Of a stretch of 33,170 bases of DNA, positions 258-32,264 are shown piece by piece; within the stretch, counting starts at the first letter, position 1; each line of letters begins with the position of its first letter. The notes below the pieces were generated by a model, which saw only the letters and a program-made list of their open reading frames with translations, was not told the origin of the DNA and searched no databases. This DNA is from a virus (taxonomy: Duplodnaviria; Heunggongvirae; Uroviricota; Caudoviricetes): IMG/VR virus record IMGVR_UViG_3300044212_000090; one strand, given 5' to 3'. The position numbers were made by a program, and so were the translations under genes.

Positions 258-322
258 GGTAGGCGAAAAGCCGCATATGACGGGGGCGCTCCGCCTGTCA
301 TCCCATATGCGTCAGGCGCAAT

Positions 323-2382: not shown

Positions 2383-2405
2383 CTATGCGTCCGCCCGGCG
2401 CATAG
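2383..2405. promoter_or_regulatory. Back-to-back pair of CGCATAG motifs (2383-2391 on -, 2397-2405 on +) between divergent genes
   Basis: CTATGCG-9 nt-CGCATAG; the minus copy is 9 nt before ATG 2373. Confidence 0.7.
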
Positions 2406-4333: not shown

Positions 4334-4447
4334 AACCCATTCTCCTTCTTGCATCATATGGACGCCTTCAAGCATACGACCCGGCTGATACCTGTCCGCA
4401 TAGCTGCTAGGCAGACTATTCCGAACTATGTGAATCAGGAGAGCGAA

Positions 4448-7400
4448 ATGAGTTTGGCGCTTGACAGCCTGCCGGTACTGCGGTGGGCGGACGTTGCGGG
4501 GCCTTTGACCAACCGCTCGGACGGCTTCATCGAGCAGATCACAAGCATGTTCTCGAACATTCCGCAGAATATCGAAGGCGTGTTCCTGTCTCTGGGAAAC
4601 GAGCTATGGTCAGGCGCGGCTTGGATGCTCAAGGCTTCGATGCCGAACGATGCGATTTCCGAGAAATTCGGCAAATTCGCGAACGAGTTCGCGGGCAGCA
4701 TGTATACGAACCTGACCGGCGACTTCATGCTGCCGTTTATCGTCATCATGCTCGCCGCATTGGGCGGCATGTGGGCCGTGTTCCGAGGACAAGGCTCCCG
4801 CGTGCTGATGAAGAAGGTCGGGGCTATGGGTTTGGGCCTCGGTCTGTTCCTGGGCATGGGCATGGCGAGCGCGGCTCCGGGTGCTACGGTGAAAACGCCC
4901 ATGACTCCCGCATGGACGGTCGGAACGGTCAACAAGGTGACGACCGACTCGCTGGGCACGGTCTCGCACGCGCTCAACAAAACCTTCGACTCCGGGCATA
5001 ACTACCTTGCAGCCGAAGCGGATGGCTACCTCTCATGCCGCCGCTACACGGTGGAGCTGCACAACCAGGCCGACGCCGAGGCCGGAGGCAAGGTGGACGG
5101 CACTCTCATGGCGCTCAACCGCATGTGGGAGGAGACGGGCCTGCGCATGTGGGCGCGCGCCCAGTACGGCAGCGGGCTCAACGGCATGCAGGTCTTCTGC
5201 CGCGTGCTCGAATACCGCGCGGGGGCAAGCCCCGAGGACATGGCGTCGATCTCAAGCGCGGCCACTGCCCAGCAGGGAGCCAAGCCGATCACGTTCAACT
5301 ACAAGTCCGCCGCATGGTGGCCCTCGCTGCTCGTCAAGAAGGGAGAGAAGGCCGGAGACGACAAAAACGGCATCGCGACCGCCAAGATGCTCGATCGCTA
5401 CGTCACGCTCTTCGATGTATGCAACGTGGATATCGCAAAGACGGGTAAAATCACCACTCGTTGGGGCTGGAATTTCGTCAATTCCATAGGCGGCAAGAAT
5501 CGTGGCATCCCATCAAGCGACGAAGCGAGAAGGAATCTTCCCGGTAATTGCCAAGCGATGCTGACGGGACGCAGCGGGCTTAAGGACGACAATGTGAACT
5601 ACTTTATCATCCAGCCCGGAGACCACAATAACCCCAAAGTCGGAGTTGACGACGCTGGATACAACACCGATGAAGACGGGAATGACTATAAGCCGGACGG
5701 CACCAACAATGCAGGCGGAGACGAAGTTCGACAACTCATCGAGAAGTTCGACGTGGCGACCAACGGAGACTGGCAGCTTCTCGCCATGGGAGGCACATCG
5801 AACAGCGGCAATACCGCTCAGCGCAATGCCGCCGTGCAAACCATGATCATGCAGCACGGCACGGCCGGAATATCCGACATCGGCGGCGCGGTCGTCTTCG
5901 CGCTCTCGGGGCTGGTGAATCTGGTCATCTGGGGCCTGGGGTTGGGGCTGCTGCGTCTTCTCGCGGTAATCATGAGCTTCCTGCTCGCGGGCATCGGTCT
6001 GTATCTCGGGTTCCTCATCTACGCGGTCATGCCCGACAGAGGCGGCAAGGCCATCAAGAGCGCGCTCCAGCAGATGGTCGCCGCGTGCGCCGGCGTCACC
6101 ATCATCACGCTGGCCGCTCAGGTCATCACCATGATCATCAACTCTCTCATGAACGCGCTGGGCCTGATCGATGCGGGAGGCAACACCAGCGGCACCATCA
6201 TGTCGATGGGGCTGGGGGCGCTGCTTCTTCCCCCCGCCGCCATCATGCTCCTCAAGTACATGTGCACGAACGTGTGGAAGATAGGCAACCCGTTCTCCGC
6301 CGAGGGGCTTGGCGCGCTGGTCGGCGGCGGAGCGATCCTCAAGGGCGTGGGCAACGCGGCCAAGGGGCTGGCCGGGGGAGCCATCGGCGGAGCGGCTGCG
6401 CTCATGGGAGGCGGGGGCGTCATGGCCGCTCTCGGCGCGGCGAGGTCCGGGGCGGCATCCGCAGCCTCGGGCAAGGGCGTCATGGGCACCGCGGGAGGCC
6501 TGGCGGACGCCGCCGGGCGCGGGCACGGCGCCGGGCAGATGGACAGGTTCTACCGCGAGCGCAACGAGAGCATGGCCGAGAAGGCCGTGGGCGGCGGCGG
6601 AGCGAAGGACCGCAACCCGACCGAGGGCGAGAGCGTGCCGGGTTCCGACGCGGAGCCGAAGAGCGCCGAAGAGACGGCCCGAGACGATGCCATCGGCGCA
6701 TCCGGGGCGGACGGCGCGAAGGACGGCGAGGAGCCGGTCGCGAGCGAAGCCGAGGCCGCAGCCACGGGCGGCGACCCGACTCTGAGCGAGGCCGGTGAGG
6801 AGCCGGAGGAAGAGCCGGAGCTGGACGAGAACGGCGAGCCTGTGGCGAACGAGGCCGAAGGCGCCGTCGAGGGCGAGCCCGACCTCTCGGAGGGCTCGGA
6901 CGATACGAAGTCCGCGCTCTCCGACATCGCAGGGTCGATGAAGGGCGACCTGCGCAAGATGAAGGACGACCTGTCGGACAAGGCCCACGCCGTCGCCGAC
7001 AGGACCTCCGAGCGGGCGCATGCGCTGGCGGATGGCGCGGTCGTGCATATGCGCCGCCACGCAGTCGGGCGCGTGGCGCTGGCCGCGGCCCCGATAGCCG
7101 CGCGGGCGGCCAAGGCCGCGGGGCGCGGCGCTCTGCGCTCCGCGGCGTCCGCCGCCAAGGGGGCCACCAAGTTCGCCTCCAAGCATCCGGTGCTCGCCAC
7201 CGCAGCCGTAGGCGCGGTCGCCCCCTGGGCGCTGCCCTTCGCCGCGGGCGGGGCCGCGCTGGCCCACTCCGCGCTCTCCAGGGGCCGGGTCGTAGGCCAT
7301 AACAGGGACGGCTCCGACATCATCAAGGGCCGGGGCTTCCTCAACCGCGGCGCCGAGGTGGCGCGGAACAGCTACCCCGCCATCAGGGAGCGCGTATCCG

Positions 7401-8797
7401 CCGCCGGATCGAAGGTCGGCGGGGCCGCGCACTCCGCCGCCGATGCGGTGGCGAACGGCGCGCACGCCCTGCGCGATGCCCAGAGCGAGTTCAGAGGCAA
7501 CATGGCGGCCCAGTCCTGGGCCAGGGATCGGGATGCGAGCGTGAAGGCGGACAAGGACCGCCAGAGCGCCGCGTTCGCCAAGGCCGTGGCCGACGGCGGG
7601 CCGAAGAGCGTGGACTACGCCCAGTTCAAGGCTAGGGCCATCCTCGCCAACCGGGCCGGCGCGGCCCCCGAGGCGCGCAGGGCCATGGATGCGGGGATTG
7701 CAGGGGCGGCGGCGGACCGCGAGATGGCGGACATGGCGCGCGGCATCGCGCTGCAGAACAGCGAGCCGATGCCCGCCCGCGCGAGCGTGAACAGCGCTCT
7801 GGGCGGCGCGGACATGGCGCTGGCGAACACCGGCGCCAGGCAGCAGTACGCCTCGGTCGCGGGGCATGTGACCTCCGAGAGCATCGCGACCACGCCGGCC
7901 GCAGCCGTGGATGACCGCATCTACGGCGGCGAGCGCCGCTACGCGCAGGCCGGGCCCGGCTCCACGGTGAACGACAGCATCTACAACGCCTCCGAGTCCG
8001 CGGCTGCAGCAACGCAGAGCGTCGATGCGAACAACGGGCCTTCCGCGGAACGGATGAAGCAGGCGCGCAGCGCCGTGGAGGCGCCGCGGGTCATGCCTAT
8101 GGGGCAGGGCATGCAGAGCGCCGCGGGCATGGCGCAGCAGGCCGCATTCGCGAGCGACAATCGCGCCGCAGGGCCTATTCCAGTCACGAATCAGAGCGCG
8201 CCCGTGAACAGCGGCAACATGCAGCAGGTGCCCGTGAACAGCGGCAACATGCGGCCTCAGAGCGCGCCCGTGAACAGCGGCAACATGCAGCAGGTGCCCG
8301 TGAACAGCGGCAACATGCGGCCTCAGAGCACGCCCGCGAACAGCGGCAACGCGCAGCAGGCGCCCGTGAACGCGGGCAGCGTAAGCCAGAGCGCTCCCGT
8401 GAACAGCGGGAACGCGCAGCAGCACGCCGTGCAGCAGACTCTGCCGGTCGACTCGGGAGCCATGCACGACCGGCAGTCCAGAGCGCAGACCATGTCTGCG
8501 GACAGGAGCAAGCCATCCGAAGTGCAGGGCCACTCCGCGCTTAACGACCGCAAGGCGGCGTTCCTGGATGACTCCGGCCCGAAGCTCGCCGAGACGCGGC
8601 GCTTCGCTCAGACCGCGCCGGAGCCCGGAGCGCAGAGCTCGCTCGACGATCAGGCGCCGGGAGGCGGCTCTCGCGGCCCGGGCCTCGCGAACACAAGCGA
8701 AAACGAAGCGCGTGTGGCGTTCGAGCGGCGGCAGAGCGCAATGGACGCCGCAATGGACGACGCACCCGACTGGGCCGCCAACGGGTTCGGCGACTGA
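4448..8797 (+). CDS. Large polytopic membrane protein, VirB6/TrbL-like, with long low-complexity C-terminal tail
   Basis: Start MSLALDSLP with SD CAGGAGAG; N-terminal TMs, a large loop, a 5-6 TM block, then Gly/Ala-rich, acidic and repeat regions. Confidence 0.65.
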   Translation: MSLALDSLPVLRWADVAGPLTNRSDGFIEQITSMFSNIPQNIEGVFLSLGNELWSGAAWMLKASMPNDAISEKFGKFANEFAGSMYTNLTGDFMLPFIVIMLAALGGMWAVFRGQGSRVLMKKVGAMGLGLGLFLGMGMASAAPGATVKTPMTPAWTVGTVNKVTTDSLGTVSHALNKTFDSGHNYLAAEADGYLSCRRYTVELHNQADAEAGGKVDGTLMALNRMWEETGLRMWARAQYGSGLNGMQVFCRVLEYRAGASPEDMASISSAATAQQGAKPITFNYKSAAWWPSLLVKKGEKAGDDKNGIATAKMLDRYVTLFDVCNVDIAKTGKITTRWGWNFVNSIGGKNRGIPSSDEARRNLPGNCQAMLTGRSGLKDDNVNYFIIQPGDHNNPKVGVDDAGYNTDEDGNDYKPDGTNNAGGDEVRQLIEKFDVATNGDWQLLAMGGTSNSGNTAQRNAAVQTMIMQHGTAGISDIGGAVVFALSGLVNLVIWGLGLGLLRLLAVIMSFLLAGIGLYLGFLIYAVMPDRGGKAIKSALQQMVAACAGVTIITLAAQVITMIINSLMNALGLIDAGGNTSGTIMSMGLGALLLPPAAIMLLKYMCTNVWKIGNPFSAEGLGALVGGGAILKGVGNAAKGLAGGAIGGAAALMGGGGVMAALGAARSGAASAASGKGVMGTAGGLADAAGRGHGAGQMDRFYRERNESMAEKAVGGGGAKDRNPTEGESVPGSDAEPKSAEETARDDAIGASGADGAKDGEEPVASEAEAAATGGDPTLSEAGEEPEEEPELDENGEPVANEAEGAVEGEPDLSEGSDDTKSALSDIAGSMKGDLRKMKDDLSDKAHAVADRTSERAHALADGAVVHMRRHAVGRVALAAAPIAARAAKAAGRGALRSAASAAKGATKFASKHPVLATAAVGAVAPWALPFAAGGAALAHSALSRGRVVGHNRDGSDIIKGRGFLNRGAEVARNSYPAIRERVSAAGSKVGGAAHSAADAVANGAHALRDAQSEFRGNMAAQSWARDRDASVKADKDRQSAAFAKAVADGGPKSVDYAQFKARAILANRAGAAPEARRAMDAGIAGAAADREMADMARGIALQNSEPMPARASVNSALGGADMALANTGARQQYASVAGHVTSESIATTPAAAVDDRIYGGERRYAQAGPGSTVNDSIYNASESAAAATQSVDANNGPSAERMKQARSAVEAPRVMPMGQGMQSAAGMAQQAAFASDNRAAGPIPVTNQSAPVNSGNMQQVPVNSGNMRPQSAPVNSGNMQQVPVNSGNMRPQSTPANSGNAQQAPVNAGSVSQSAPVNSGNAQQHAVQQTLPVDSGAMHDRQSRAQTMSADRSKPSEVQGHSALNDRKAAFLDDSGPKLAETRRFAQTAPEPGAQSSLDDQAPGGGSRGPGLANTSENEARVAFERRQSAMDAAMDDAPDWAANGFGD
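8192..8422 (+). repeat. Intragenic tandem repeats (30/36-nt units) encoding PVNSGNMQQV / PVNSGNMRPQSA
   Basis: About seven copies of CCCGTGAACAGCGGCAAC, degenerating rightwards. Confidence 0.9.
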
Positions 8798-9784: not shown

Positions 9785-9929
9785 GCTCTCCGCTTCATCG
9801 GCAAGCGCCTCCGCTCTCTTTTCACGGGAGGGCGGAGGCGCTTCTCGTTCCCGACGCATAGCCATCTCCCATAAGGAGGCGGCGTGCCGCGCGTCCACCC
9901 GGGGCGCTTCGTGCCATGCCGCGCATATC

Positions 9930-10067
9930 ATGAGCGATCGAGACGACGACCGGGAGCGGCGCAAGTTCACCTCCGACTCCAGCAAGGAGAAGTGGGGCCT
10001 GTGGGCGGGGGCGGTCCTGCTCTTCGTCGTGCCCATCTCCCTCATCCTGGGGATCTTCGGGCAATGA
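9930..10067 (+). CDS. Small membrane protein, 45 aa
   Basis: Charged N-terminus plus one TM; ATGA overlap with the HNH gene. Confidence 0.6.
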   Translation: MSDRDDDRERRKFTSDSSKEKWGLWAGAVLLFVVPISLILGIFGQ

Positions 10068-18245: not shown

Positions 18246-18426
18246 CGCCCGACTCCTTTTCAGCTTGTCTGCAATGCCTATATGCGTCGGCGCAGAAGCA
18301 GGGAGGGAATCGACGGATGCAGGAGTGCGCTCGAACGGGAGGAGTGCGTCGAATTCGGGCATATGCGCCGTATGCGCCGGCTAGCACCCGTATGCGTTTT
18401 CCGGCGTTTTTTCAACGAAAATGGGC

Positions 18427-19877: not shown

Positions 19878-19886
19878 GACGCATAG
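19878..19886 (+). promoter_or_regulatory. GACGCATAG motif, 8 nt before GTG 19895
   Basis: No SD before the start. Confidence 0.7.
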
Positions 19887-19894
19887 CCGCCATC

Positions 19895-22342
19895 GTGCCC
19901 TTCAATCCGTTCAAGAACGCCCCGGCTCCCGCGCCCAAGGCGTCTCCTTCCGCGCTCGCGGCGCCGGAGGAGCCTCCTGTCGCGCCCTCGGCGTCTGCGG
20001 AGACGGATTCATGGGAGTCGGCATGGGGCGCGGCGACAGGCGGGGAGCCTGCCCCGCAGCCCGAGCCTCCTGTTTCCTCGAACCCGAAGGAAGATCCGAA
20101 GCAGCCTGCGCCCCTTCTTGTCGAGGAAGCGCCGACTGGGGCATCTGCGCCCGTTCCCGAAGAGCAGGCAGAGATGTCGGTCGCCCCAGTTCGTCCGAAG
20201 GATGACGATGCCTCATGGTTCGCAGAAGACGAGCCGGAGGACGAGCCTCCTGCCGTATCGCTGTTCGAGGAAGCCGAACCGGAACAGGCCCCCGCCGTGA
20301 AGCCCGCCGCCTCCTCGTGGCTCGATCATCTCGACGGCACCGACGACGCCGGCGATCTCGATTGGGGCGATGATGCCGCATCGGGCATGGGGCAGCCGGA
20401 AGCGAAGCCTGCTCCTATCGCGGACGAAGACCCCTGGGGCGCGGAGCGGAACGGCGAAGAGCCAACCGCCACCGACGAGCCGGAGGCGTCTGCGGCGGAT
20501 GACGGCTTCTGGGGCAATGCTCCCGAAGCTCCTTCCTCGTCGCAGGAAGACGCAGATTCCGTCTCTGCGCATGATGACGACTTCTGGGGCGCTCCCGAAA
20601 GCGGCGAAGGCGAGAACGCCCTCCAGGACGAGTCTTCATCGCAGAAGGCTGCGGATCCTACCTCGGCGGCGGATGGCGACTTCTGGGGCGCGGCGCCTAC
20701 TCCCGTTGATGATGATTTCTGGGGGGCCGCATCGGATGCAGGCGAAGACGCCCCTGCCCCGGCTGCGGGGCGGACGGAGCGGAAAGCCGGGTCCGGCGCG
20801 AACGAAGAGCCGGAACCGGCTGACGACTTCTGGGGCGCCTCCGCGCCGGACGGGGAAAACGGGCCGGAGGAGACGCCCCCTGCGCCCGACCCTGCGCTCG
20901 ATGACGGCAGCCAGGGCATATCGGAGGCAGGCGAGGAGAGGCGCGTGGAGCCCGCCTCGTCCGACGATGGCTTCTGGGGGCCTTCGGCCCCCTCCTCGAA
21001 GACGGATAATGCAAAGCCCTCTTCGGATGCATCCGACGACGATTTCTGGGGAGATGCGAACGAAGACGCTCCGATCGCATCGGAGCTCCCCGCGAACGCC
21101 GCGGAGACGGACGGCGAGAGCACGCAGATCATGCCGGGGCCGCAGCTCCCGAAATCCCACCCCTCGGATGAGGGCGATGACGGCTTCTGGGGCGACGCCG
21201 CGCAAGAGCGCGCCCGGGCCGTGTCGCCCGCCGCGAAGCGGGTGCGTTCCGAAGAGGACGGGCGCGAGTCCGCATCCGATGGAACGCCTGCCGTCGTATC
21301 CTCCTCGCGCCCCGGCTTCTTCGACGGCCCGTCCCTGCCCGTGCATCTCGACCTCGCCGAGAGCGACGACGAGGAGGGCGACGCCCCTGAATTCTCTGCA
21401 GGCGCGGGCGACCTGTGGGACGATGCGCCCGCAAGGCCCGCAGCCGCCGCGAGCGACCCGTTCGGCGTCGAGGATGAAGACGACGTCAGCGAGCACGAGG
21501 CGAAGCGCTCCTCTCCGCTCGCGGACATCCCGTTCCGCCTCATCGCCATCGTCCTGGCCGTGGTGCTGGCGCTGGGCGCGGGCGGGTTCGGCATGGCGAC
21601 GTGGATGAGGCAGCGCGCCGCCGAGAGAACGAAGGCGGAGAACGCGGCGCTGTGCTCCCAGCTCTCCGACGCCCGTGCATCGTGGAAGTCGAAGACGGCG
21701 CAGGTCAAGGGGCTGCACGCCCAGCCTCCCGCCGCGCCATCGTTCGCGTGCTTGTCCACCGGCAACGCCATGCGCGAGAGCCTCGGGCGCATCGCCGCCG
21801 CGGACAAGAGGCTCGACTCCGCCATAGCGAAGGCCGTGCAAGGCGCGTGGAAGCCGACCGCAGACGGGCTCGCGGGACTCAAGGCGAAGCGCCCGGGAGC
21901 CTCCGCGGACACGATCGACGCGGCCCTGACGCTCTCGAAGCAGAGCCCGAGGACCGCCGCCGACCTGCAGTCCATGCAGCGTCAGGCCAAAGCGCTGGAC
22001 GACAAGGCGGCATCCGAGCAGAAGGCCGCGGACGCGAAGAAGGCGGCGGCGAAAGCCAAGGCCGACGCGGAGGCGAAGAGGAAGGCGGACGAAGCAGCCA
22101 AGAAAGCCGCGGACGAAGCGGCGAAGAAGGCCGCGGAGGACGCCGCCAACGCGCCGCAGCCGCAGTACGCCCCCGCGTATACGCCGACATATGTGCCCAG
22201 ATATGCTCCTAGATACGTGCCGCCGGCCCCGGCGCCCAAGCCCACCGCCCCGGCTCCCGCCCGCCCCCTGCCCCGGCTCCCAAGCCAGCGCCTCCCAAAG
22301 GCAACTCCGATGCCAGCATGTGATCGGCGGAACATGCCCTAG
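19895..22342 (+). CDS. Bitopic membrane protein: acidic disordered N-terminus with DxxFWG repeats, TM, coiled coil, Pro-rich tail (probable indel near 22260)
   Basis: Eight FWG motifs; TM FRLIAIVLAVVLALGAGGFGMATW; KAADEAAKKAA repeats. A +1 frame gives APAPKPAPPKGNSDASM with stop at 22323. Confidence 0.8.
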   Translation: MPFNPFKNAPAPAPKASPSALAAPEEPPVAPSASAETDSWESAWGAATGGEPAPQPEPPVSSNPKEDPKQPAPLLVEEAPTGASAPVPEEQAEMSVAPVRPKDDDASWFAEDEPEDEPPAVSLFEEAEPEQAPAVKPAASSWLDHLDGTDDAGDLDWGDDAASGMGQPEAKPAPIADEDPWGAERNGEEPTATDEPEASAADDGFWGNAPEAPSSSQEDADSVSAHDDDFWGAPESGEGENALQDESSSQKAADPTSAADGDFWGAAPTPVDDDFWGAASDAGEDAPAPAAGRTERKAGSGANEEPEPADDFWGASAPDGENGPEETPPAPDPALDDGSQGISEAGEERRVEPASSDDGFWGPSAPSSKTDNAKPSSDASDDDFWGDANEDAPIASELPANAAETDGESTQIMPGPQLPKSHPSDEGDDGFWGDAAQERARAVSPAAKRVRSEEDGRESASDGTPAVVSSSRPGFFDGPSLPVHLDLAESDDEEGDAPEFSAGAGDLWDDAPARPAAAASDPFGVEDEDDVSEHEAKRSSPLADIPFRLIAIVLAVVLALGAGGFGMATWMRQRAAERTKAENAALCSQLSDARASWKSKTAQVKGLHAQPPAAPSFACLSTGNAMRESLGRIAAADKRLDSAIAKAVQGAWKPTADGLAGLKAKRPGASADTIDAALTLSKQSPRTAADLQSMQRQAKALDDKAASEQKAADAKKAAAKAKADAEAKRKADEAAKKAADEAAKKAAEDAANAPQPQYAPAYTPTYVPRYAPRYVPPAPAPKPTAPAPARPLPRLPSQRLPKATPMPACDRRNMP

Positions 22343-22450: not shown

Positions 22451-22459
22451 GACGCATAT
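22451..22459 (+). promoter_or_regulatory. GACGCATAT motif, 8 nt before ATG 22468
   Basis: No SD before the ATG. Confidence 0.7.
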
Positions 22460-23878: not shown

Positions 23879-23974
23879 ATTGACGGGCAGCTGCGCCGGG
23901 GCAGCGTTGGATGAACGCACGTGAACTGGGCGCAATCGTCTGTCATGCCGTTATATGCGTCCGCAGACAAAAGG

Positions 23975-25526: not shown

Positions 25527-25590
25527 GACTTTCCGCTCCTTGCATGTCGTTTCGGTCCGCCGCCTCATGTATGCGTCCCGGATACGGCAA

Positions 25591-25710: not shown

Positions 25711-26802
25711 CTAGTCGACGCGCAGCGGCACGACGATCTGGCGCACGAAGCCCGCATCCGACGCGAAGAGCGCCGGGGCCAGCCCGCCGCGCCCGTTCGC
25801 CTTCGCGCACAGGGTGACGACCTCGCCCCTGTCCGCGTTCAGCGCGTCGGTCAGGTACGCGGAGTTGAACGCCAGGCGCTTGGGCAGCGAGCCGTCCACG
25901 TCGGCATCCACCGACGTGCTGAACCCGCCCTCCTCCGCCGAGGCGGCGGTCGAGAGCGTCATCTGGTCGTCCGCGAAGCGGAACTCGACCTTGGTGATGC
26001 GCTCGGACGACTGGTCGAACGCGCGGCAGCGCCTGACGGCGTCCAGGAGCATCGCGCGGTCGGCGCGTGCGGTCAGCTCGGCGTCCGCCGGGTCGATGAA
26101 CGCGCGGTCGATCTGCGGGAAGCCGCCCTCGATCACCCCCGACACGTCCAGGTCGGTCTCGGAGCTGAGCGCCACGGCGCGCTCGGTCACGCCGAACGAC
26201 GAGACGCCCGCGGCTGCGCCCTTGAGCCAGGCGCCCGGCGCGATGACGTCGCACTCCAGCCCCTCGGCGGGGATGGAGGCGATGGCCGCGCGGTAGCGGT
26301 CCGTCGCCGAGGCGAACAGTCGCCCGTCCTGCGTGTGCAGCCGGATGCCGCCGAGCACCGCGTTGTTCGGGTCGCGCCCCACGGCGTGCGACACCGATGC
26401 GACCAGCTGCGCGAAGCCGCCGTCCTCCAGCGCCGTCATCGACGCAGGCATCGCGGGCATCTCGGGCGCCAGGGCGTCGGGCATGATGCCGACGTAGCCG
26501 CGCCCGCGCGTCCCGTCGAAGCGCAGCCTCGTGCCGTCGAGCGTCCACGTCGCCTCGCCCGGCGCGCCGTTCGTCGCGGCTGCGGACAGCCACGCGGCGT
26601 TCGCGTATGAGACGCCGCTCTCGCTCTCCGATGCGGGGATGGTCGAGCGGGAGAAGCCGGAGGGCGAGCTGCCCTCAAGCGTCACCGACCCGTCGCCCAC
26701 GCTTATCTTCAGAGCGGACCCCGCGGGGCTGGTGGTGTCCAGGATGCGCGAGACGTGGGCCGCGGCGCGCGCCAGCTCCCCCTGATCGACCGTGAATTTC
26801 AT
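25711..26802 (-). CDS. dnaN: Divergent DNA polymerase III beta sliding clamp homologue, 363 aa
   Basis: MKFTVDQGEL, VLGGI, ATDRYR, GGFPQID, LAFNSAYLTDAL and terminal IVVPLRV match the clamp pattern; SD GAAGGAG; not in a dnaA-dnaN-recF context. Confidence 0.85.
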   Translation of the reverse strand: MKFTVDQGELARAAAHVSRILDTTSPAGSALKISVGDGSVTLEGSSPSGFSRSTIPASESESGVSYANAAWLSAAATNGAPGEATWTLDGTRLRFDGTRGRGYVGIMPDALAPEMPAMPASMTALEDGGFAQLVASVSHAVGRDPNNAVLGGIRLHTQDGRLFASATDRYRAAIASIPAEGLECDVIAPGAWLKGAAAGVSSFGVTERAVALSSETDLDVSGVIEGGFPQIDRAFIDPADAELTARADRAMLLDAVRRCRAFDQSSERITKVEFRFADDQMTLSTAASAEEGGFSTSVDADVDGSLPKRLAFNSAYLTDALNADRGEVVTLCAKANGRGGLAPALFASDAGFVRQIVVPLRVD

Positions 26803-26846
26803 ATGCACTCCTTCAAGTGTGCTGCATGTCGTTGTGTCGGGCGACC

Positions 26847-26869
26847 GTATGCGTCCGCGAAGCGCATAG
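26847..26869. promoter_or_regulatory. Back-to-back pair of CGCATA motifs (26847-26855 on -, 26861-26869 on +)
   Basis: GTATGCG-9 nt-CGCATAG; the plus copy is 9 nt before ATG 26879. Confidence 0.7.
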
Positions 26870-26878
26870 CCGCTTCCC

Positions 26879-29233
26879 ATGAAGAATCCCAACTGGTATG
26901 AGCTCATTCCCGTGCCCACCGCCGCCGAGCCGGTCGACGATCAGGCATCGTTCCTGCGCCGCGCCCGGCGCGCAGCCGAGGCGCTGGGGCTCTCGTCCCG
27001 TCCGTCGCTGGACTCCGCGGGCGATCTGCTCAGGCGCGCGGATGGCGTGACGCTGCTCGCCGAGGGACCGAGGCGCTATGTGGCCCTCGACCCGGATGCG
27101 TCCGACGACGCGGCGGCGATGCTCGCGCGCGCGTGCGACGCCACCGCGAAGCCGTGCGAACGGCCCGCCATCCTGGACGAGCGGCTCGTGTGGGCACACG
27201 CGGTCGTCCCCTCGCTCTCGACGCTGGGGCGCACCGCGCAGGACGATCTGGAGACCGGCGACGACGTGCGCCTGGCCCCGAGCGACGGCTCGCTCGTGTA
27301 CGTGCACGTGCGCCGGCAGGGGTTCATGGAGGTGCGCCGGGCGAAGCGGTGGCTGGCCGACGAGTTCAACATGCAGCCGGACACCTCCAAGCTCGTGCAG
27401 GCGGGCACGGGCGTGGCGCGCGTGGGCTGCGCCGCACCGGACCGGGGCGCCGCGTTGAAGGGCGCGGAGCGCGCCGCCAACTCGCTCGACCTAGGGCTCA
27501 CCCCCGGCGTCTCGAAGCACATCAGCCGCCCCGCGCTGGGATTGCTGTGCCTCTCGCTCGTCCCGCTCATCGCCTCCATCGCGCTGACCATCTGGCTGCA
27601 GTGGCCGCTGCTCGTCCCGTTCGCCGTCATCCTCTTCGCGTTCGCGCTCGTGCGCTATCTGCGCACGCCGAAGAGCGCGGATCTAAGGCAGCGCCCAAGG
27701 CACTACTGGTCGCTCTCGGACAGAATGCGCAAGGCGAAATCCGACGATCTCAAAACCCGGAGCACGGGGGACGAGGAGGGGGCAGGGGCGCGCAAGCGCC
27801 GCGTGCATGCGTACAGCTACCAGCGCTCCACGCTGCCCGTGCCCGCCGCGACGCTCGCCGCGCTGGCGCGCCCGGCCCCCGCGGTCGAGGGGAGCCGCAC
27901 GGCGCTGACCGAGGCCCCCGAGTCGCTCCTGAAGGAGTCCGGGCCGCGCGTGGGCGTGGATGCGGGCAGGCGCGACGTGCGCCTCGCCGCGAACACCTTG
28001 TACGGCGGCGTGTTCCTGATGGGCCGCATGGGCGGCGGCAAGTCGAACTCCATGCACGGGCTGGAGCGCTGGGCCGCGGAGCACGATGCCCCCGGCGACG
28101 CGATGGTGGTCTTCGAGTCCAAGGGCGTGGACTCCGTGCCGCTGCTGCGCTCCCTCATGGGCGGGCTGCACGTGGTCGACGTCAACGACCCGGCGACCCC
28201 GATGATCGACCTGCTTGGGAGCGGCTCGCCGTCCGAGCGCGCGGAGCGCTTCGCCTCGCTGATGCGCGGCGCGCTGGGCGACGGGCAGATAGGCCCGCGC
28301 AGCCGCATGCAGCTGCGCGACGCCGTGTGGCTGGCCCTCGACGTGCTGCCGCTCGATTCCTTCGCGAAGAGCTGCGCCGCGGCGGGCGCGTCCGTTCCGA
28401 AGAGCTGGGTCGCGTTCGCCATGGACATCCTGGCCGGCTCCGGCGTGGCGCAGGCCCGCGCGCTGGCGCATGCCGCGCGCATGGCGGACGACGGCCCCGA
28501 GGTCGCGCAGGCCGTCGAGCGCCTTCACGGGGGGGTGAACGAGTCGAGCGGACGCCCGCTGGTCTCCGACGGGCAGCTGATCTCCACGCTCTCGGCGCCG
28601 ATGAACAAGATGAGCCTGCTCTCCCAGGCGCCGGCGATCGCCGCGCCGGGGCGCCGGTCGTTCGCATGGCGCTCGATGCTCCAGGGCTCGGCGCACGCAC
28701 CCGCGCGGCTGGTCGTGAACCTCGGCGGCACGGTGGGCGGCGCCCACGAGTCGCTGCCCGAGGACGTGAAGCGTCTGGTCGGCGCCCTGCTGCTGCAGGG
28801 GCTGCGCCAGGAGATCGAGGCGGGCTGCGCGGGCTGGCAGGCGCAGGGCCGGCACATGCGCCTGTTCGCCGACGAGCTTACGGAGCTGCTCGGCTCCGAC
28901 GCCGGCACGGCGGGCGGCAACGCGGAGGCGTTCGGGTGGATGCACTCCAAGGGCCGCGCCTACGGCGCCGAGCTCACGGCGGGCACGCAGTTCCCCGAGC
29001 AGCTGGACCACGTGACGCTGGCGCTGGTCTCCGGCTTCGACGCGAAGCTGTGCTTCGCCATGCGCGCGAGCGATCAGGCGCGGGTGGCGGGCGACATGAT
29101 GGGCGTGGAGCCTGAGCGGCTCCAGCAGTTGCCGCTGCACGTGGCCGCGGTGCGCGCGGTGGACGGCGACTTCGCGCTGCTCCCCGCCATGTTCCTGGCC
29201 GTGCCGCACTTCGACGGCGGAGACGCCGCCTGA
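26879..29233 (+). CDS. VirD4/TraD-like coupling ATPase with central TM hairpin
   Basis: Two TMs at about aa 220-260; Walker A GRMGGGKS; Walker B RLFADE; GTQFPEQL. Confidence 0.7.
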   Translation: MKNPNWYELIPVPTAAEPVDDQASFLRRARRAAEALGLSSRPSLDSAGDLLRRADGVTLLAEGPRRYVALDPDASDDAAAMLARACDATAKPCERPAILDERLVWAHAVVPSLSTLGRTAQDDLETGDDVRLAPSDGSLVYVHVRRQGFMEVRRAKRWLADEFNMQPDTSKLVQAGTGVARVGCAAPDRGAALKGAERAANSLDLGLTPGVSKHISRPALGLLCLSLVPLIASIALTIWLQWPLLVPFAVILFAFALVRYLRTPKSADLRQRPRHYWSLSDRMRKAKSDDLKTRSTGDEEGAGARKRRVHAYSYQRSTLPVPAATLAALARPAPAVEGSRTALTEAPESLLKESGPRVGVDAGRRDVRLAANTLYGGVFLMGRMGGGKSNSMHGLERWAAEHDAPGDAMVVFESKGVDSVPLLRSLMGGLHVVDVNDPATPMIDLLGSGSPSERAERFASLMRGALGDGQIGPRSRMQLRDAVWLALDVLPLDSFAKSCAAAGASVPKSWVAFAMDILAGSGVAQARALAHAARMADDGPEVAQAVERLHGGVNESSGRPLVSDGQLISTLSAPMNKMSLLSQAPAIAAPGRRSFAWRSMLQGSAHAPARLVVNLGGTVGGAHESLPEDVKRLVGALLLQGLRQEIEAGCAGWQAQGRHMRLFADELTELLGSDAGTAGGNAEAFGWMHSKGRAYGAELTAGTQFPEQLDHVTLALVSGFDAKLCFAMRASDQARVAGDMMGVEPERLQQLPLHVAAVRAVDGDFALLPAMFLAVPHFDGGDAA

Positions 29234-29235
29234 CG

Positions 29236-29244
29236 GACGCATAC
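29236..29244 (+). promoter_or_regulatory. GACGCATAC motif, 8 nt before ATG 29253
   Basis: No SD; sits in the 19-bp gap after the VirD4-like stop. Confidence 0.7.
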
Positions 29245-29252
29245 GCGCGCGC

Positions 29253-30122
29253 ATGCAACATCTGAGCCATGACATGCGCGACGAGCTGGACGCGCGGGTG
29301 AGAGCCATCGACTGGACCGACGCCGCGTGCGAGTACGACAGCCCAGAGCGCCATCTCGTCGCATCCTGGGCGGCGCAGAGCGATCTGGTGCCCTCCGCCC
29401 TGGGCAGGCTCTTCCCCGACGATCAGCAGCGCGAGCGGATGATCGAGTACACGATGGTGCGCGTCGTGGAGAAGATCCTGGGCGTGGCGATCGAATCGAA
29501 GAGCGCCCAGTGGAATTGGGGCAACCTCTGGGACCCGCGCGAGGACACGTCCTTCTGCGGCTGGTGCCGGCGCCTGGCCTACTCGGTGGCGCGCACGAAC
29601 GCCGGCCGCGTGCTTCACCCGAAGACGGTGAACGGCTCTGGCATGGAGAACGACGACGGGTACAACCCCGCATGGGACTCCAAGGATTCCAAGCCGCTCA
29701 TGACGGTGGCCCCGGACGAGCTGTTCGCCGAGCATCCCGATCTGGCGGTGCCGCGCCCGGTGGGCGGCTCGCGCGAGCGCATGGATGCGCTGCTGCGACT
29801 GAACGGCCCGGCGCGCACCCTGAGGTGGCTGCGCCGCTGCGGGTACTGGGACGCGTCGATGGACGGACTCGACCCGGACGTGGCATTGGCGCTGCTCTCC
29901 GCCCCCGTGCCGCGAGCCCGCGCCATGCAGCTGCCGCTGCTCTTCGCAGGACGCGAGCGCATGGCGGAGCTCTACGCGCGCACGCAGACCGCGAAGCCGG
30001 ACCAGCGCCACCTGGGCGAGCTGCGCCGCGAGGTCACCGCCGCGGCGCGGGAGAACGGCGAGCGGGAATGGCATGTGTGGACGCGCCTGGGCACCGCGGC
30101 CGCGCAGTTGGCGTCAGTATGA
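29253..30122 (+). CDS. Divergent sigma70 region-2-like protein, 289 aa
   Basis: WDPREDTSFCGWCRRLAYSVARTNAGR resembles the ECF region 2.2-2.4 pattern (FDP..G.SF.TW...IARN.A.D..R); no clear region-4 HTH. Confidence 0.5.
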   Translation: MQHLSHDMRDELDARVRAIDWTDAACEYDSPERHLVASWAAQSDLVPSALGRLFPDDQQRERMIEYTMVRVVEKILGVAIESKSAQWNWGNLWDPREDTSFCGWCRRLAYSVARTNAGRVLHPKTVNGSGMENDDGYNPAWDSKDSKPLMTVAPDELFAEHPDLAVPRPVGGSRERMDALLRLNGPARTLRWLRRCGYWDASMDGLDPDVALALLSAPVPRARAMQLPLLFAGRERMAELYARTQTAKPDQRHLGELRREVTAAARENGEREWHVWTRLGTAAAQLASV

Positions 30123-30521
30123 CGATGCTCTGAACGCGGGCCATGGCGACGGGGGAGCCAGCTCGAAGCCCAGATCGAGGCCGACGGCCAGGCACCACGC
30201 GGCGAAGCGCGCGCCTCCCGTGCGTCCGTCGAGCAGCCATCCCATGTCGGCTTTCGCGGGATTGACTTCCGTTTCGCACCATGTCGCCGCCCGTTCGATG
30301 CGCCGGAGCGCGGCGATCCGACCGGTGCCGAAGATCGCCTGATCGGTCATCCACACGTGCAATGAGAGCAGCGCGGGGTCCGCCATGCATCCCTCGATTA
30401 GCCGGGGCAGGCAGCGCGAGCCGTCGCTCGCGGACAGCGCGCGCAGTTCGGCGAGCATCGCTCCGCGCCGCGCCGCGGCGGCGGATCGCGCCGCCGCGGC
30501 GTCTACTTGCGATGGAACCAT
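30114..30521 (-). CDS. Hypothetical protein, 135 aa
   Basis: MVPSQVDAAAAR...; downstream of and overlapping the ParA-like gene. Confidence 0.65.
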   Translation of the reverse strand: MVPSQVDAAAARSAAAARRGAMLAELRALSASDGSRCLPRLIEGCMADPALLSLHVWMTDQAIFGTGRIAALRRIERAATWCETEVNPAKADMGWLLDGRTGGARFAAWCLAVGLDLGFELAPPSPWPAFRASSY

Positions 30522-31288
30522 GAGCGCTTCTCGGGTGCCTTGAAGTCGTCGCGCCGTCCGCCCGCGAACACGGCGGCGCGCCGCAGCCAGTCGGGCTCGG
30601 CGCCCGCGTCGTAGCCGGGCCTGCGCGCGTCGAGCATCTTCGCGGACGCCTCGTCCCACACGTCCGAGCCGCCCCACATGCCCATGCCGTCGAGCAGACG
30701 CTCCCAGCTCTGGTCGGAGTGGGGCTTCAGGACCCCCGGCACCTGGGCGACGACCATCGTCTGGCTCGGTCGGCGGATGGCGTCCAGTGCCGCGAGCCCG
30801 TCGTCGAGCTGGGAGCCGGTCTGGCCTATCTTGAAGACGATGCGGGCGCCGCCCGACTGCACGAACGGGCGCATGACGCCGCCTGCGAACGTGGCGGGGT
30901 CGTTCCATGTGGAGCCGTCGACGCGGTCGGCGTCCACTATCACGATGTCGCACGCGCCGCGAAGCGCCACGAGCGCGGAGCCGTACAGGTCGTTGATGCC
31001 GGGCGCGCGCGGCTCCAGAGGGCCGGGGAGCAGTGCGAAGGACGCTCCCGTGCCGCCTGTGCCGGGGCGGATCCATGCGGCCTTGAGGCCTTTCACCGCG
31101 GCGCGCTCCAGCCCCGCGCTGTCGCCCAGTGCGAGGAAGGCGCGCTGGGACTGCTGGCCCGGATTGCCGTCGACGAGCACGGTGCGAAGGCGCGTGCGCC
31201 CCAGCGCCTCGGCCACGGCCCGCGCACTGGAGCTCTTGCCCAGCCCGCCTGAGCCGCCTGTGAAGAATGTGATGGGAGCGCTTGTCAT
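30503..31288 (-). CDS. ParA/MinD-like P-loop ATPase with atypical deviant Walker A
   Basis: FFTGGSGGLGKSS, VLVDGNPGQ, CDIVIVD; basic/aromatic C-terminus KRSWFHRK. Confidence 0.75.
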   Translation of the reverse strand: MTSAPITFFTGGSGGLGKSSSARAVAEALGRTRLRTVLVDGNPGQQSQRAFLALGDSAGLERAAVKGLKAAWIRPGTGGTGASFALLPGPLEPRAPGINDLYGSALVALRGACDIVIVDADRVDGSTWNDPATFAGGVMRPFVQSGGARIVFKIGQTGSQLDDGLAALDAIRRPSQTMVVAQVPGVLKPHSDQSWERLLDGMGMWGGSDVWDEASAKMLDARRPGYDAGAEPDWLRRAAVFAGGRRDDFKAPEKRSWFHRK

Positions 31289-31297
31289 GCGCTTGGC

Positions 31298-31306
31298 CTA
31301 TGCGCC
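31298..31306 (-). promoter_or_regulatory. GGCGCATAG motif, 9 nt before ATG 31288
   Basis: A second copy (AGCGCATAA) lies at 31319-31327. Confidence 0.7.
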
Positions 31307-31339
31307 TGTAAAACCCCGTTATGCGCTCGTGCGTGGTTT

Positions 31340-32170
31340 GGACCCCTTGATGGGATTATTGATTTATTGTTTATGTTTGATTGTTGTCTATTGATATGTC
31401 TATTTATTTGATTGTCTATGGTTGTTATGTTTGATTTCATGTCTGTTCGTTGCTGATTTGCTGTTCGTGCTGATTGTCTGTTTGTGCTGTTTGATTTGTT
31501 CATGCTGTCTATGTCTGTGCTGTCTATTTTTGATTCGTTCGTTTTATGCTGTCTGTTGCTGTATTGCGTCTATGCGTTTCGTTTGTTGATTGCTTACGTG
31601 TGTTATGTGCGTTTCTGTTTGTTGATTGCTTACGTGAGTAGTGGGAGATTTTTTCTTTTTGGCTTGTGCTTGCTTTGGCTAGGTATGTATCTGTTTGTTG
31701 ATTGCTTGCGTTTGGCTTTCCATGTTGAAGTGTGTTTTTGCTTGTGTGTGTTCTGTATTGGCTGTCTGTCTTTGCTCGGCTTTGGCTAGGTATGTATCTG
31801 TTTGTTTTTGCTTGCTTTGGTTTAGGTTATGTATGTTGTGTTTGTCATTGCTTGCTTTGGGTATGCTGCTTGCGTTGTTCCTTAGGTGTGCTGATGTTCT
31901 TCTTTAGGTATGTGCTTGAGATTGATCTTGAGGTTGTCTTCTGGAGTTCTCTGTGTTCTTCTTTATGAGGTTTTCTTTGAGCGTCTTTCTTTGCGTTCGT
32001 TTCTTTTAGGTTTGCTAAGGGTGTTTTCGTTTTAGGGTTGCCAGGGGTGTTTTCTTTTCCTCTTCGCTTTTCGTTTGCGTTCGTGTTCGGCTTCCCGGCT
32101 AGCGCCGCATGCCATGCGCCCTTGCCGGGCGCGCGGGGCTTTTCGCTTCGCTTCTTCTTTCCGCTTTCGT
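31340..32170. repeat. Strand-skewed T-rich low-complexity region with nested direct repeats
   Basis: Top strand dominated by T (with G, then C at the right end); GTTTGTTGATTGCTT at 31581, 31617, 31693; 28-bp GCTTTGGCTAGGTATGTATCTGTTTGTT at 31672 and 31779. Confidence 0.85.
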
Positions 32171-32264
32171 CTGATTCTTCGCGCATGGCGTCTGCGTGAC
32201 GCATAGTGCGTCTCATGGACGCGCGGAGACGCCGTGCGCCGTCAAAGCGAAAGGGAGAGGCATC

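Follow-up and report, generated by a model that had tools for sequence, protein, structure and literature searches.

The late promoters of bacteriophage T4 consist of a single block without a -35 element, SigN of plasmid pBS32 is a recognisable sigma-70 member that contains regions 2 and 4 and uses a two-block promoter, and sigma factors of the extracytoplasmic function (ECF) group recognise a short, CG-containing -10 word. Late transcription in T4 is carried out by the gp55-gp33-gp45 system (PMC7892883, PMC2988020), with structures of gp55 available under PDB codes 7D7C/7D7D. The integrative conjugative element Tn916 encodes a split sigma factor, Sig7-8 (orf7/orf8), which binds RNA polymerase and auto-activates the promoter Psig7 (Gomberg and Grossman, October 2026, bioRxiv 10.64898/2026.10.01.756105), and SigN (ZpdN) of Bacillus subtilis is an alternative sigma factor of a large plasmid that displays positive feedback (PMC6751061, PMC10601692). 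The present analysis concerns P0001, a protein encoded in IMG/VR virus record IMGVR_UViG_3300044212_000090, a stretch of 33,170 nucleotides with a GC content of ~70% (the window, whose numbering is used for coordinates unless another locus is named), which is DNA of a Bifidobacterium-type conjugative element. P0001 is the best candidate reader of the word GACGCAT[A/G] (GACGCATR), which lies ahead of the P0001 gene and of numerous further genes on the element. On predicted structure and comparative sequence analysis, from which all functional claims made here are derived, we favour with moderate confidence the reading that P0001 belongs to the sigma-70 family, or is an analogue of its members, and that this very divergent factor is encoded by the element, activates itself and reads GACGCATR. 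The fold, the anatomy of the motif, the conservation and the restriction to gene-bearing genomes are directly supported by the data described below. Bifidobacteria are hard to engineer, and the switching-on of their mobile elements is little understood.

Fold and domain organisation of P0001

The gene and the parts of its product are as follows.

29253..30122, plus strand: P0001 gene, encoding a sigma-like protein of 289 residues (open reading frame, codon-position GC, family of 33 clusters)
29253..29630, plus strand: N-terminal domain, residues 1-126, with a probable sigma domain-2-like fold (predicted local distance difference test score, pLDDT, >95 over most of its length; structure search)
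29631..29744, plus strand: flexible acidic linker, ~residues 127-164, consensus ExEDGxNP, low pLDDT
29745..30119, plus strand: C-terminal helical domain, residues 165-289, starting at an invariant (V)PRP, modelled alone

The open reading frame displays a GC content of 0.90 at third codon positions (GC3) against 0.50 at second positions (GC2), a pattern consistent with a genuine coding frame in DNA of 70% GC. When 1.84 billion representative proteins were searched exhaustively with HMMER, a small family of 33 clusters was revealed, of which 30 lie below 1e-10; one named member, from Bombiscardovia coagulans, is annotated as hypothetical. Plasmids of PLSDB and phages of INPHARED gave zero matches in tblastn and blastn searches. 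In an alignment of 29 family members (A1) the most conserved stretch is R70..E73-K74-I75..S82..W87-N88..W93-x-P95..S100-F101..W104-x-R106..R119-x-L121. The segment in which an earlier interpretation, made from the DNA letters and termed here the sequence-only reading, had seen a sigma region 2 was located at residues 60-118 of the translation.

The AlphaFold2 model of the whole protein, computed from A1, presents a pLDDT of 91.5 and comprises two helical domains, extending over residues 1-121 and ~165-289, with a low-confidence linker between them; the acidic stretch 122-165 contains 9 D/E and 3 K/R. The N-terminal domain carries the near-invariant E73-K74, the family-specific loop S82..W87-N88..W93-x-P95 and S100-F101..W104-x-R106. 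Exhaustive comparison with 48,161 PDB representatives using VIA-align revealed that the best 33 rows are, without exception, sigma domain 2 (33/33; Z 7.7-5.3), the domain-level matches presenting a root mean square deviation (rmsd) of 2.4-4.5 over 76-107 residues within model residues 1-126. They include sigma32 (Z 7.7), region 2 of RpoS (PDB code 5h6x_B; Z 7.7 and rmsd of 3.5 over 93 residues), the N-terminal domain of SigE (PDB code 8b3z_A; Z 7.2) and SigR (PDB code 1h3l_B; Z 7.1 and rmsd of 2.5 over 77 residues), together with SigB, pro-SigK, sigma70 and SigA. The best 30 Swiss-Prot AlphaFold models retrieved by Foldseek are all sigma factors as well (30/30; best E 0.08, probability 0.91), and the top of the Foldseek lists is occupied by sigma factors for the PDB and by phage sigma factors for viral proteins, both with weak E-values. 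Comparison of protein-language-model features, which provides independent evidence, placed residues 1-130 nearest to Sigma70_r2 clusters (score 0.92), with 82 of 100 matches falling in two sigma-r2 sets. The sigma-2 fold expected by the sequence-only reading was thus recovered by VIA-align, by the Swiss-Prot search and by language-model features, and the N-terminal half of the modelled protein very probably adopts it.

The C-terminal domain comprises 125 conserved residues and, when modelled alone, displays a pLDDT of 97.6. P0001 had previously been described as a region-2-only protein; since residues 165-289 are conserved and fold with this confidence by themselves, that description is contradicted. 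The layout of P0001, with domain 2, an acidic linker and a second domain in one chain, is the overall layout of a sigma factor. Searches of the PDB (three ways, with Foldseek and VIA), of AFDB clusters and of the ESM Atlas with the C-terminal domain revealed family members or weak ties only; the best PDB match has a Z of 5.4, and a clear fold match was not obtained. Domain 4 of sigma-A (PDB code 4g6d_A) reaches a Z of 4.3, tied with homeodomains and many unrelated helices. Language-model features of the domain lean weakly to Sigma70_r4/r4_2, a lead only at scores of 0.80-0.85, below the 0.9 mark of the tool. The C-terminal domain may be a degenerate region 4 or a domain of a new kind.

The GACGCATR word in the window and in related elements

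The following copies of the motif are of relevance in the window.

29236..29244, plus strand: GACGCATAC, promoter-like word before the P0001 gene, 8 nt to the ATG (9 nt from the 8-mer GACGCATA)
19878..19886, plus strand: motif copy, 8-mer 9 nt from GTG 19895 of an open reading frame of 815 residues, leaderless type
22451..22459, plus strand: motif copy, 8-mer 9 nt from ATG 22468
32198..32206, plus strand: motif copy, 8-mer 9 nt from ATG 32215
2383..2391, minus strand: motif copy, 8-mer 10 nt from ATG 2373 of an open reading frame of 339 residues
249..257, minus strand: motif copy, 8-mer 9 nt from an ATG
305-313, minus strand: second nearby motif copy
9853..9861, plus strand: leadered motif copy, 23 nt with AAGGAGG, then GTG 9884 (HNH protein)
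18280..18288, minus strand: leadered motif copy, 35 nt with AAAGGAG, then the ATG of a primase-polymerase/helicase gene
23953..23961, minus strand: motif copy, 7 nt to an ATG
25569-25577, minus strand: motif copy with an AAGGAG leader
26847..26869, both strands: back-to-back motif pair in a divergent gap, comprising minus-strand GACGCATAC and plus-strand variant AGCGCATAG

Upstream of the P0001 gene, GACGCATAC begins 3 nt past the TGA (29231-29233) of a gene encoding 784 residues and, as the sequence-only reading had noticed, ends 8 nt before the start codon: positions 29236-29244 are followed by the 8 nt GCGCGCGC and by the ATG at 29253. No Shine-Dalgarno sequence is present between the stop codon of the 784-residue gene and this ATG, and no sigma-70-type promoter or terminator was found within 28800-30600; the P0001 mRNA is probably leaderless at translation. 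With at most one mismatch allowed, the motif occurs 21 times in the window, in comparison with 7.1 ± 2.9 times in dinucleotide-preserving shuffles, all 100 of which stayed below 21. The exact 8-mer GACGCATA is present in 13 copies, nearly all of them intergenic and directed toward the next gene. In the pair at 26847..26869, the minus-strand GACGCATAC faces a DnaN-like gene and the plus-strand AGCGCATAG lies 9 nt before ATG 26879, the start of the 784-residue ATPase.

The anatomy of the word was defined in a pool of ~100-110 non-redundant GACGCAT[A/G] copies drawn from the window and 33 related loci after removal of near-duplicates; L043 and L056, which belong to the unpublished genome G003, were excluded from all analyses. 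Among 105 copies, zero positions between -50 and -3 are conserved and a G preference is observed at -1 only, and the word therefore has no -35 partner. Neither position-specific information nor k-mer enrichment with free spacing yielded such a partner; the only enriched words were inverted copies of the motif itself. The T at the position required by TANNNT is present in 12 of the 105 copies, and permutations that keep the composition of the word are found 7-37 times, the word itself 102 times. The distance from the word to the start of long open reading frames peaks at 8-10 nt (25/102 copies, 14 of them at exactly 9 nt), which is the spacing expected of leaderless mRNAs, and most of the remaining copies lie 17-46 nt upstream of the start, often with AGGAG in between. 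Because the distance is fixed where a Shine-Dalgarno sequence is lacking, and a leader of variable length is found where one is present, the word behaves as a promoter element that sets the start site. The 105-copy profile and the spacing peak thus bear out the suggestion that the motif is promoter-like, element-wide and without a -35, and on these comparisons GACGCAT[A/G] is a genuine element-wide, one-block promoter-like word. It is unlike the housekeeping promoter consensus of bifidobacteria, TTGACA-n17-TATAAT (PMC10832533).

The word takes the position of a Shine-Dalgarno sequence before genes that lack one, as would be expected if it acted in the RNA, for example as a ribosome-recruiting element of another type within a short 5' leader. 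We know, however, of no complementarity between the word and the usual anti-Shine-Dalgarno tail of 16S rRNA, and many copies lie 20-45 nt upstream with a normal AGGAG between word and start codon, so that a role in RNA instead of as a promoter is extremely unlikely.

A function as an operator would be of a different nature: GACGCATR would be bound by an element-encoded repressor or activator, or by another DNA-binding protein, the host housekeeping sigma would transcribe, and P0001, in spite of its fold, would have a role other than that of a sigma factor. The bifidobacterial megaplasmid pMP7017 offers a precedent in a plasmid-specific 34-bp motif over the -10 box, which was interpreted as a transcription-factor site (PMC10832533). 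Inverted copies, found 10-40 bp upstream of ~15-20% of the copies, could suit a dimeric binder, and the absence of a sequence-level sigma signal in P0001 (see below) also agrees with an operator. However, neither TANNNT nor a -35 is present near the word for use by the host sigma, and the word is asymmetric, oriented with respect to the gene, placed 8-10 nt from starts without a Shine-Dalgarno sequence and at variable distance where such a leader exists. The inverted copies, moreover, lie in divergent gaps with each facing its own gene; they represent promoters placed back to back between divergently transcribed genes, as at 26847-26869. An operator is for these reasons considered unlikely.

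Homologues of P0001 are encoded by the chromosomes of Bombiscardovia coagulans and Bifidobacterium castoris, by 29 metagenome contigs, many of them labelled human gut, and by 2 IMG/VR contigs. In most relatives the homologous gene starts 8-11 nt after the word, including the Bombiscardovia locus, where GC content is 46%, and it is found before homologues that retain only 31-35% identity to P0001 (L078, L080, L082-L084). An unbiased count in L080 revealed GACGCATA as the most over-represented 8-mer, with 13 copies against 0.54 expected. The arrangement in which the gene is preceded by the promoter class of the proposed regulon is thus present in the window and in most relatives. The P0001-family gene is carried by 8 of 201 Bifidobacteriaceae species genomes, and all 8 are among the top 10 genomes for GACGCATA-N8-10-ATG sites (9-27 sites per genome, in comparison with mostly 0-8 in the remainder), an outcome with a chance probability of ~8e-13; the co-occurrence of gene and motif proposed as a check by the sequence-only reading is therefore observed. 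In the Bombiscardovia genome (G001), 7 of 16 sites fall within ~45 kb around the gene, and the P0001 family accompanies the motif in every GACGCATR-rich element examined. Since the hosts themselves do not use the word, its reader should be encoded by the element.

One further Bifidobacteriaceae genome (G207) contains 14 GACGCATA-N8-10-ATG sites, with 0 found in the control, but has zero P0001-family matches at E 1e-5; it may encode a more divergent factor, or its element may be split by assembly gaps. The Bombiscardovia coagulans element also contains P0036, an unrelated open reading frame of 370 residues at L038:634-1746 (minus strand), ~13.7 kb from the P0001 homologue, which presents a weak Sigma70_r2 match (E 0.015 in a six-frame search and 0.088 with the protein) and is preceded by GACGCATA, 8 nt and an ATG. 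No P0036 homologue was identified in the window.

The most divergent relative is P0030, whose element (metagenome contig L077) contains a single GACGCATR copy and seven CCGCRCCATG words; the latter lie 30-45 nt before genes led by a Shine-Dalgarno sequence (for example those at 10001, 14172 and 15666 of L077) and before its own sigma-like gene. P0030 departs from the family at near-invariant loop residues (N88K, D94K, F101V and G103A), and factor and promoter may possibly covary, as judged from the sequences of this one case.

These observations bear on whether P0001, although sigma-like and able to bind RNA polymerase, might leave GACGCATR to another factor, for instance one encoded outside the window, and itself serve other promoters or compete with the host sigma as a decoy. 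The fold evidence fits that alternative equally, and P0036 illustrates that such elements can carry additional sigma-like genes. Toxicity through sigma competition has been documented for Sig7-8 and SigN (bioRxiv 10.64898/2026.10.01.756105; PMC10601692). Against this, the window lacks a P0036 homologue while the motif is accompanied by the P0001 family, and the sole element with an altered P0001-like loop also displays an altered motif. A reader other than P0001 is consequently judged improbable.

Evidence weighed, proposed mechanism and gene context

Several results weigh against P0001 as a sigma factor that reads GACGCATR. P0001 has zero matches in Pfam, NCBIfam, PHROG and PDB sequences, even at E = 10, the 29 family members have zero matches to sigma families in Pfam and NCBIfam, and the family profile retrieved zero sigma factors from the PDB sequence set. 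Profile comparison with hhalign, against our own alignments built from 30 actinobacterial sigma genes, gave a P of 0.056 for the ECF alignment (7 sequences), which is not significant. Z values of up to 7.7 are moderate and, according to the warning of the tool, in a range that common helical arrangements can reach, and the structural case is thus carried by the uniform match list. PDB structure searches with the C-terminal domain revealed no sigma-4 fold match. In L085 and L077 the word is not directly before the homologous gene. Co-occurrence alone is not proof of reading, because gene and motif share one mobile element, and the window is part of a larger element which may encode other regulators.

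The remaining hhalign comparisons were also not significant (P 0.38 with 23 larger sigmas, and 0.33). The ECF comparison aligns W.P..TSFCGW.R of P0001 with F..SF.TW..R of region 2.3/2.4, and places a 17-residue family-specific insertion, with conserved S/W/N/W/P, between helices 2.2 and 2.3. The region 2.3/2.4 register advanced in the sequence-only reading is therefore the one that hhalign also chooses, but without significance, and homology of P0001 to sigma factors is not demonstrable at the level of sequence. A ranking of sigma against decoy open reading frames by hmmsearch, which placed ECF sigmas first and second at ~4 bits, was discarded because the decoys were mostly wrong-frame open reading frames. 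Prediction of a complex between P0001 residues 1-130 and B. castoris beta-prime residues 1-480 gave a score of 0.01 in a run without controls; it provides no verdict and was not used.

With P0001 taken as a sigma-like reader of GACGCATR, a mechanism can be proposed in which we infer RNA polymerase binding, reading of the word by P0001 itself and positive feedback. By analogy with sigma factors, the sigma-2 module would bind the host RNA polymerase at its beta-prime clamp helices, and P0001 would recognise and melt the single block (G/C)GACGCAT(A/G), at ~-17 to -10 from the start site. The C-terminal domain would occupy the usual place of region 4, yet without an accompanying -35. Transcripts would either be leaderless, with the start codon 8-10 nt past the word, or carry a leader of 20-45 nt with a Shine-Dalgarno sequence. 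A first dose of P0001 might come, for example, from read-through of the upstream ATPase gene; since the word precedes its own gene, which lacks a Shine-Dalgarno sequence, the factor is proposed to amplify its own synthesis, and this positive feedback would switch on replication and transfer genes of the element jointly. A bolder extension is put forward tentatively and may well not hold: P0001 could represent a new sigma family private to conjugative elements of Bifidobacteriaceae, which reads a single 8-bp block without a -35 contact, has region 4 replaced by a new C-terminal domain docking perhaps on the sliding clamp or on partition/transfer ATPases, and provides, through mostly leaderless mRNAs, a transcription-translation channel insulated from the host.

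If correct, the favoured reading would explain how transfer and replication genes are coordinated across a family of gut actinobacterial conjugative elements, and would place an actinobacterial case beside the auto-activating sigma switch of Tn916. It would also provide an 8-bp, host-orthogonal promoter that needs neither a -35 nor a ribosome-binding site, and thereby a compact orthogonal expression module. Sigma-like regulators, moreover, can escape all current sequence models.

Three genes in the vicinity of P0001 are of relevance.

26879..29233, plus strand: membrane-anchored Walker-A ATPase of 784 residues, without a family match, conserved neighbour of the P0001 gene
30503..31288, minus strand: ParA-like ATPase (weak CbiA match), conserved convergent neighbour
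25711..26919, minus strand: divergent sliding clamp of the DnaN type, encoded by the element (TIGR00663 E 1e-22, which falls well short of the cut-off for the family)

The 784-residue protein is predicted to contain membrane segments at its N-terminus, displays the Walker A motif GGGKSN and, as far as its sequence indicates, is like a coupling-type ATPase. The gene of this same ATPase, of ~780-800 residues, adjoins the sigma-like gene in most loci examined, and a ParA-like gene does so in the closer relatives. The DnaN-like gene and the ATPase/P0001 pair are divergently transcribed, and the true start of the former probably lies downstream of 26855; DnaN-like genes are also found near the sigma-like gene in L078, L083 and L085. 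No other protein of the window has a transcription-factor assignment. None of the three largest window proteins, of 784, 1482 and 815 residues (26879-29233, 4349-8797 and 19895-22342, respectively), falls into a Pfam, NCBIfam or PHROG family. Positions 31300-31800, upstream of the ParA-like gene, comprise a strongly T/G-skewed, low-complexity stretch of 50% GC with repeated words, among them TGTCTAT and GTTTGTTGATTGCTT, which may be a centromere-like or iteron region.

The presence of a divergent dnaN near the gene, in the window as in L078, L083 and L085, raises the question of coupling as in T4, where P0001 would act like gp55 and be activated by the DnaN-like clamp of the element, through the peptide QLPLLF or another C-terminal contact, thus tying late transcription to element replication. 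In the structure comparison, gp55 of T4 ranks within the three best matches (7d7d_F, Z 7.4), and one-block promoters without a -35 are shared with T4 late genes. QLPLLF (residues 226-231, window 29928-29945), in contrast, is unique to P0001, with neither the Q nor the pattern kept in any homologue (0/28), and it lies in a high-confidence, folded helical region, unlike the flexible-tail motifs of gp55 and gp33 (PMC7892883). As a sequence found in P0001 only and inside a folded helix, it does not constitute a conserved clamp-binding motif, and it was rejected as such on conservation. A gp33-like partner was also not identified. Clamp coupling of this type is thus very unlikely.

Comparison with described systems

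Self-activating sigma factors of mobile elements are already known; the features particular to this locus are the unassigned second domain, the dispersed one-block promoter class and its occurrence in Actinomycetota. The closest parallel in arrangement is Sig7-8, a sigma factor of a conjugative element whose own gene stands under the promoter that it reads, forming a positive-feedback on-switch, although for P0001 the likeness extends to the arrangement only. In addition, the N-terminal language-model neighbours of P0001 include HTH_16/Sigma70_r2 clusters of Bacillota. Sig7-8, however, comprises two polypeptides, acts at one major promoter, Psig7, and belongs to Bacillota, while P0001 is a single chain of 289 residues from Bifidobacteriaceae. 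P0001 further differs in having no Pfam-detectable similarity and in being associated with at least a dozen dispersed one-block promoters, many of them leaderless.

T4 gp55 resembles P0001 in its divergent sigma-2-like fold (rmsd of 3.2 over 94 residues to 7d7d_F, VIA-align) and in the use of a single -10-region word without a -35, which in the case of P0001 is a candidate word. This contrasts with the requirement of gp55 for the co-activator gp33 and the gp45 clamp, with a clamp-binding motif on the linker (PMC7892883), whereas P0001 displays a large folded C-terminal domain, has no conserved clamp-binding peptide and presents no sequence relationship to gp55.

SigN is of the same type as the proposed factor, being encoded by a mobile element and placed in a self-activating arrangement. 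In contrast with SigN, P0001 escapes all sequence models, and the promoter class associated with it consists of one block. The ECF sigma factors (group 4; SigR, SigE, SigH and SigW) provide some of the tightest superpositions and the best sequence-profile partner, in the same register, and their short -10 word likewise contains CG. They need, however, a -35 that is read by a recognisable region 4, while P0001 displays a 17-residue insertion, no Pfam match, a promoter word without a -35 and a C-terminal domain of its own in which a region 4 fold is not recognisable.

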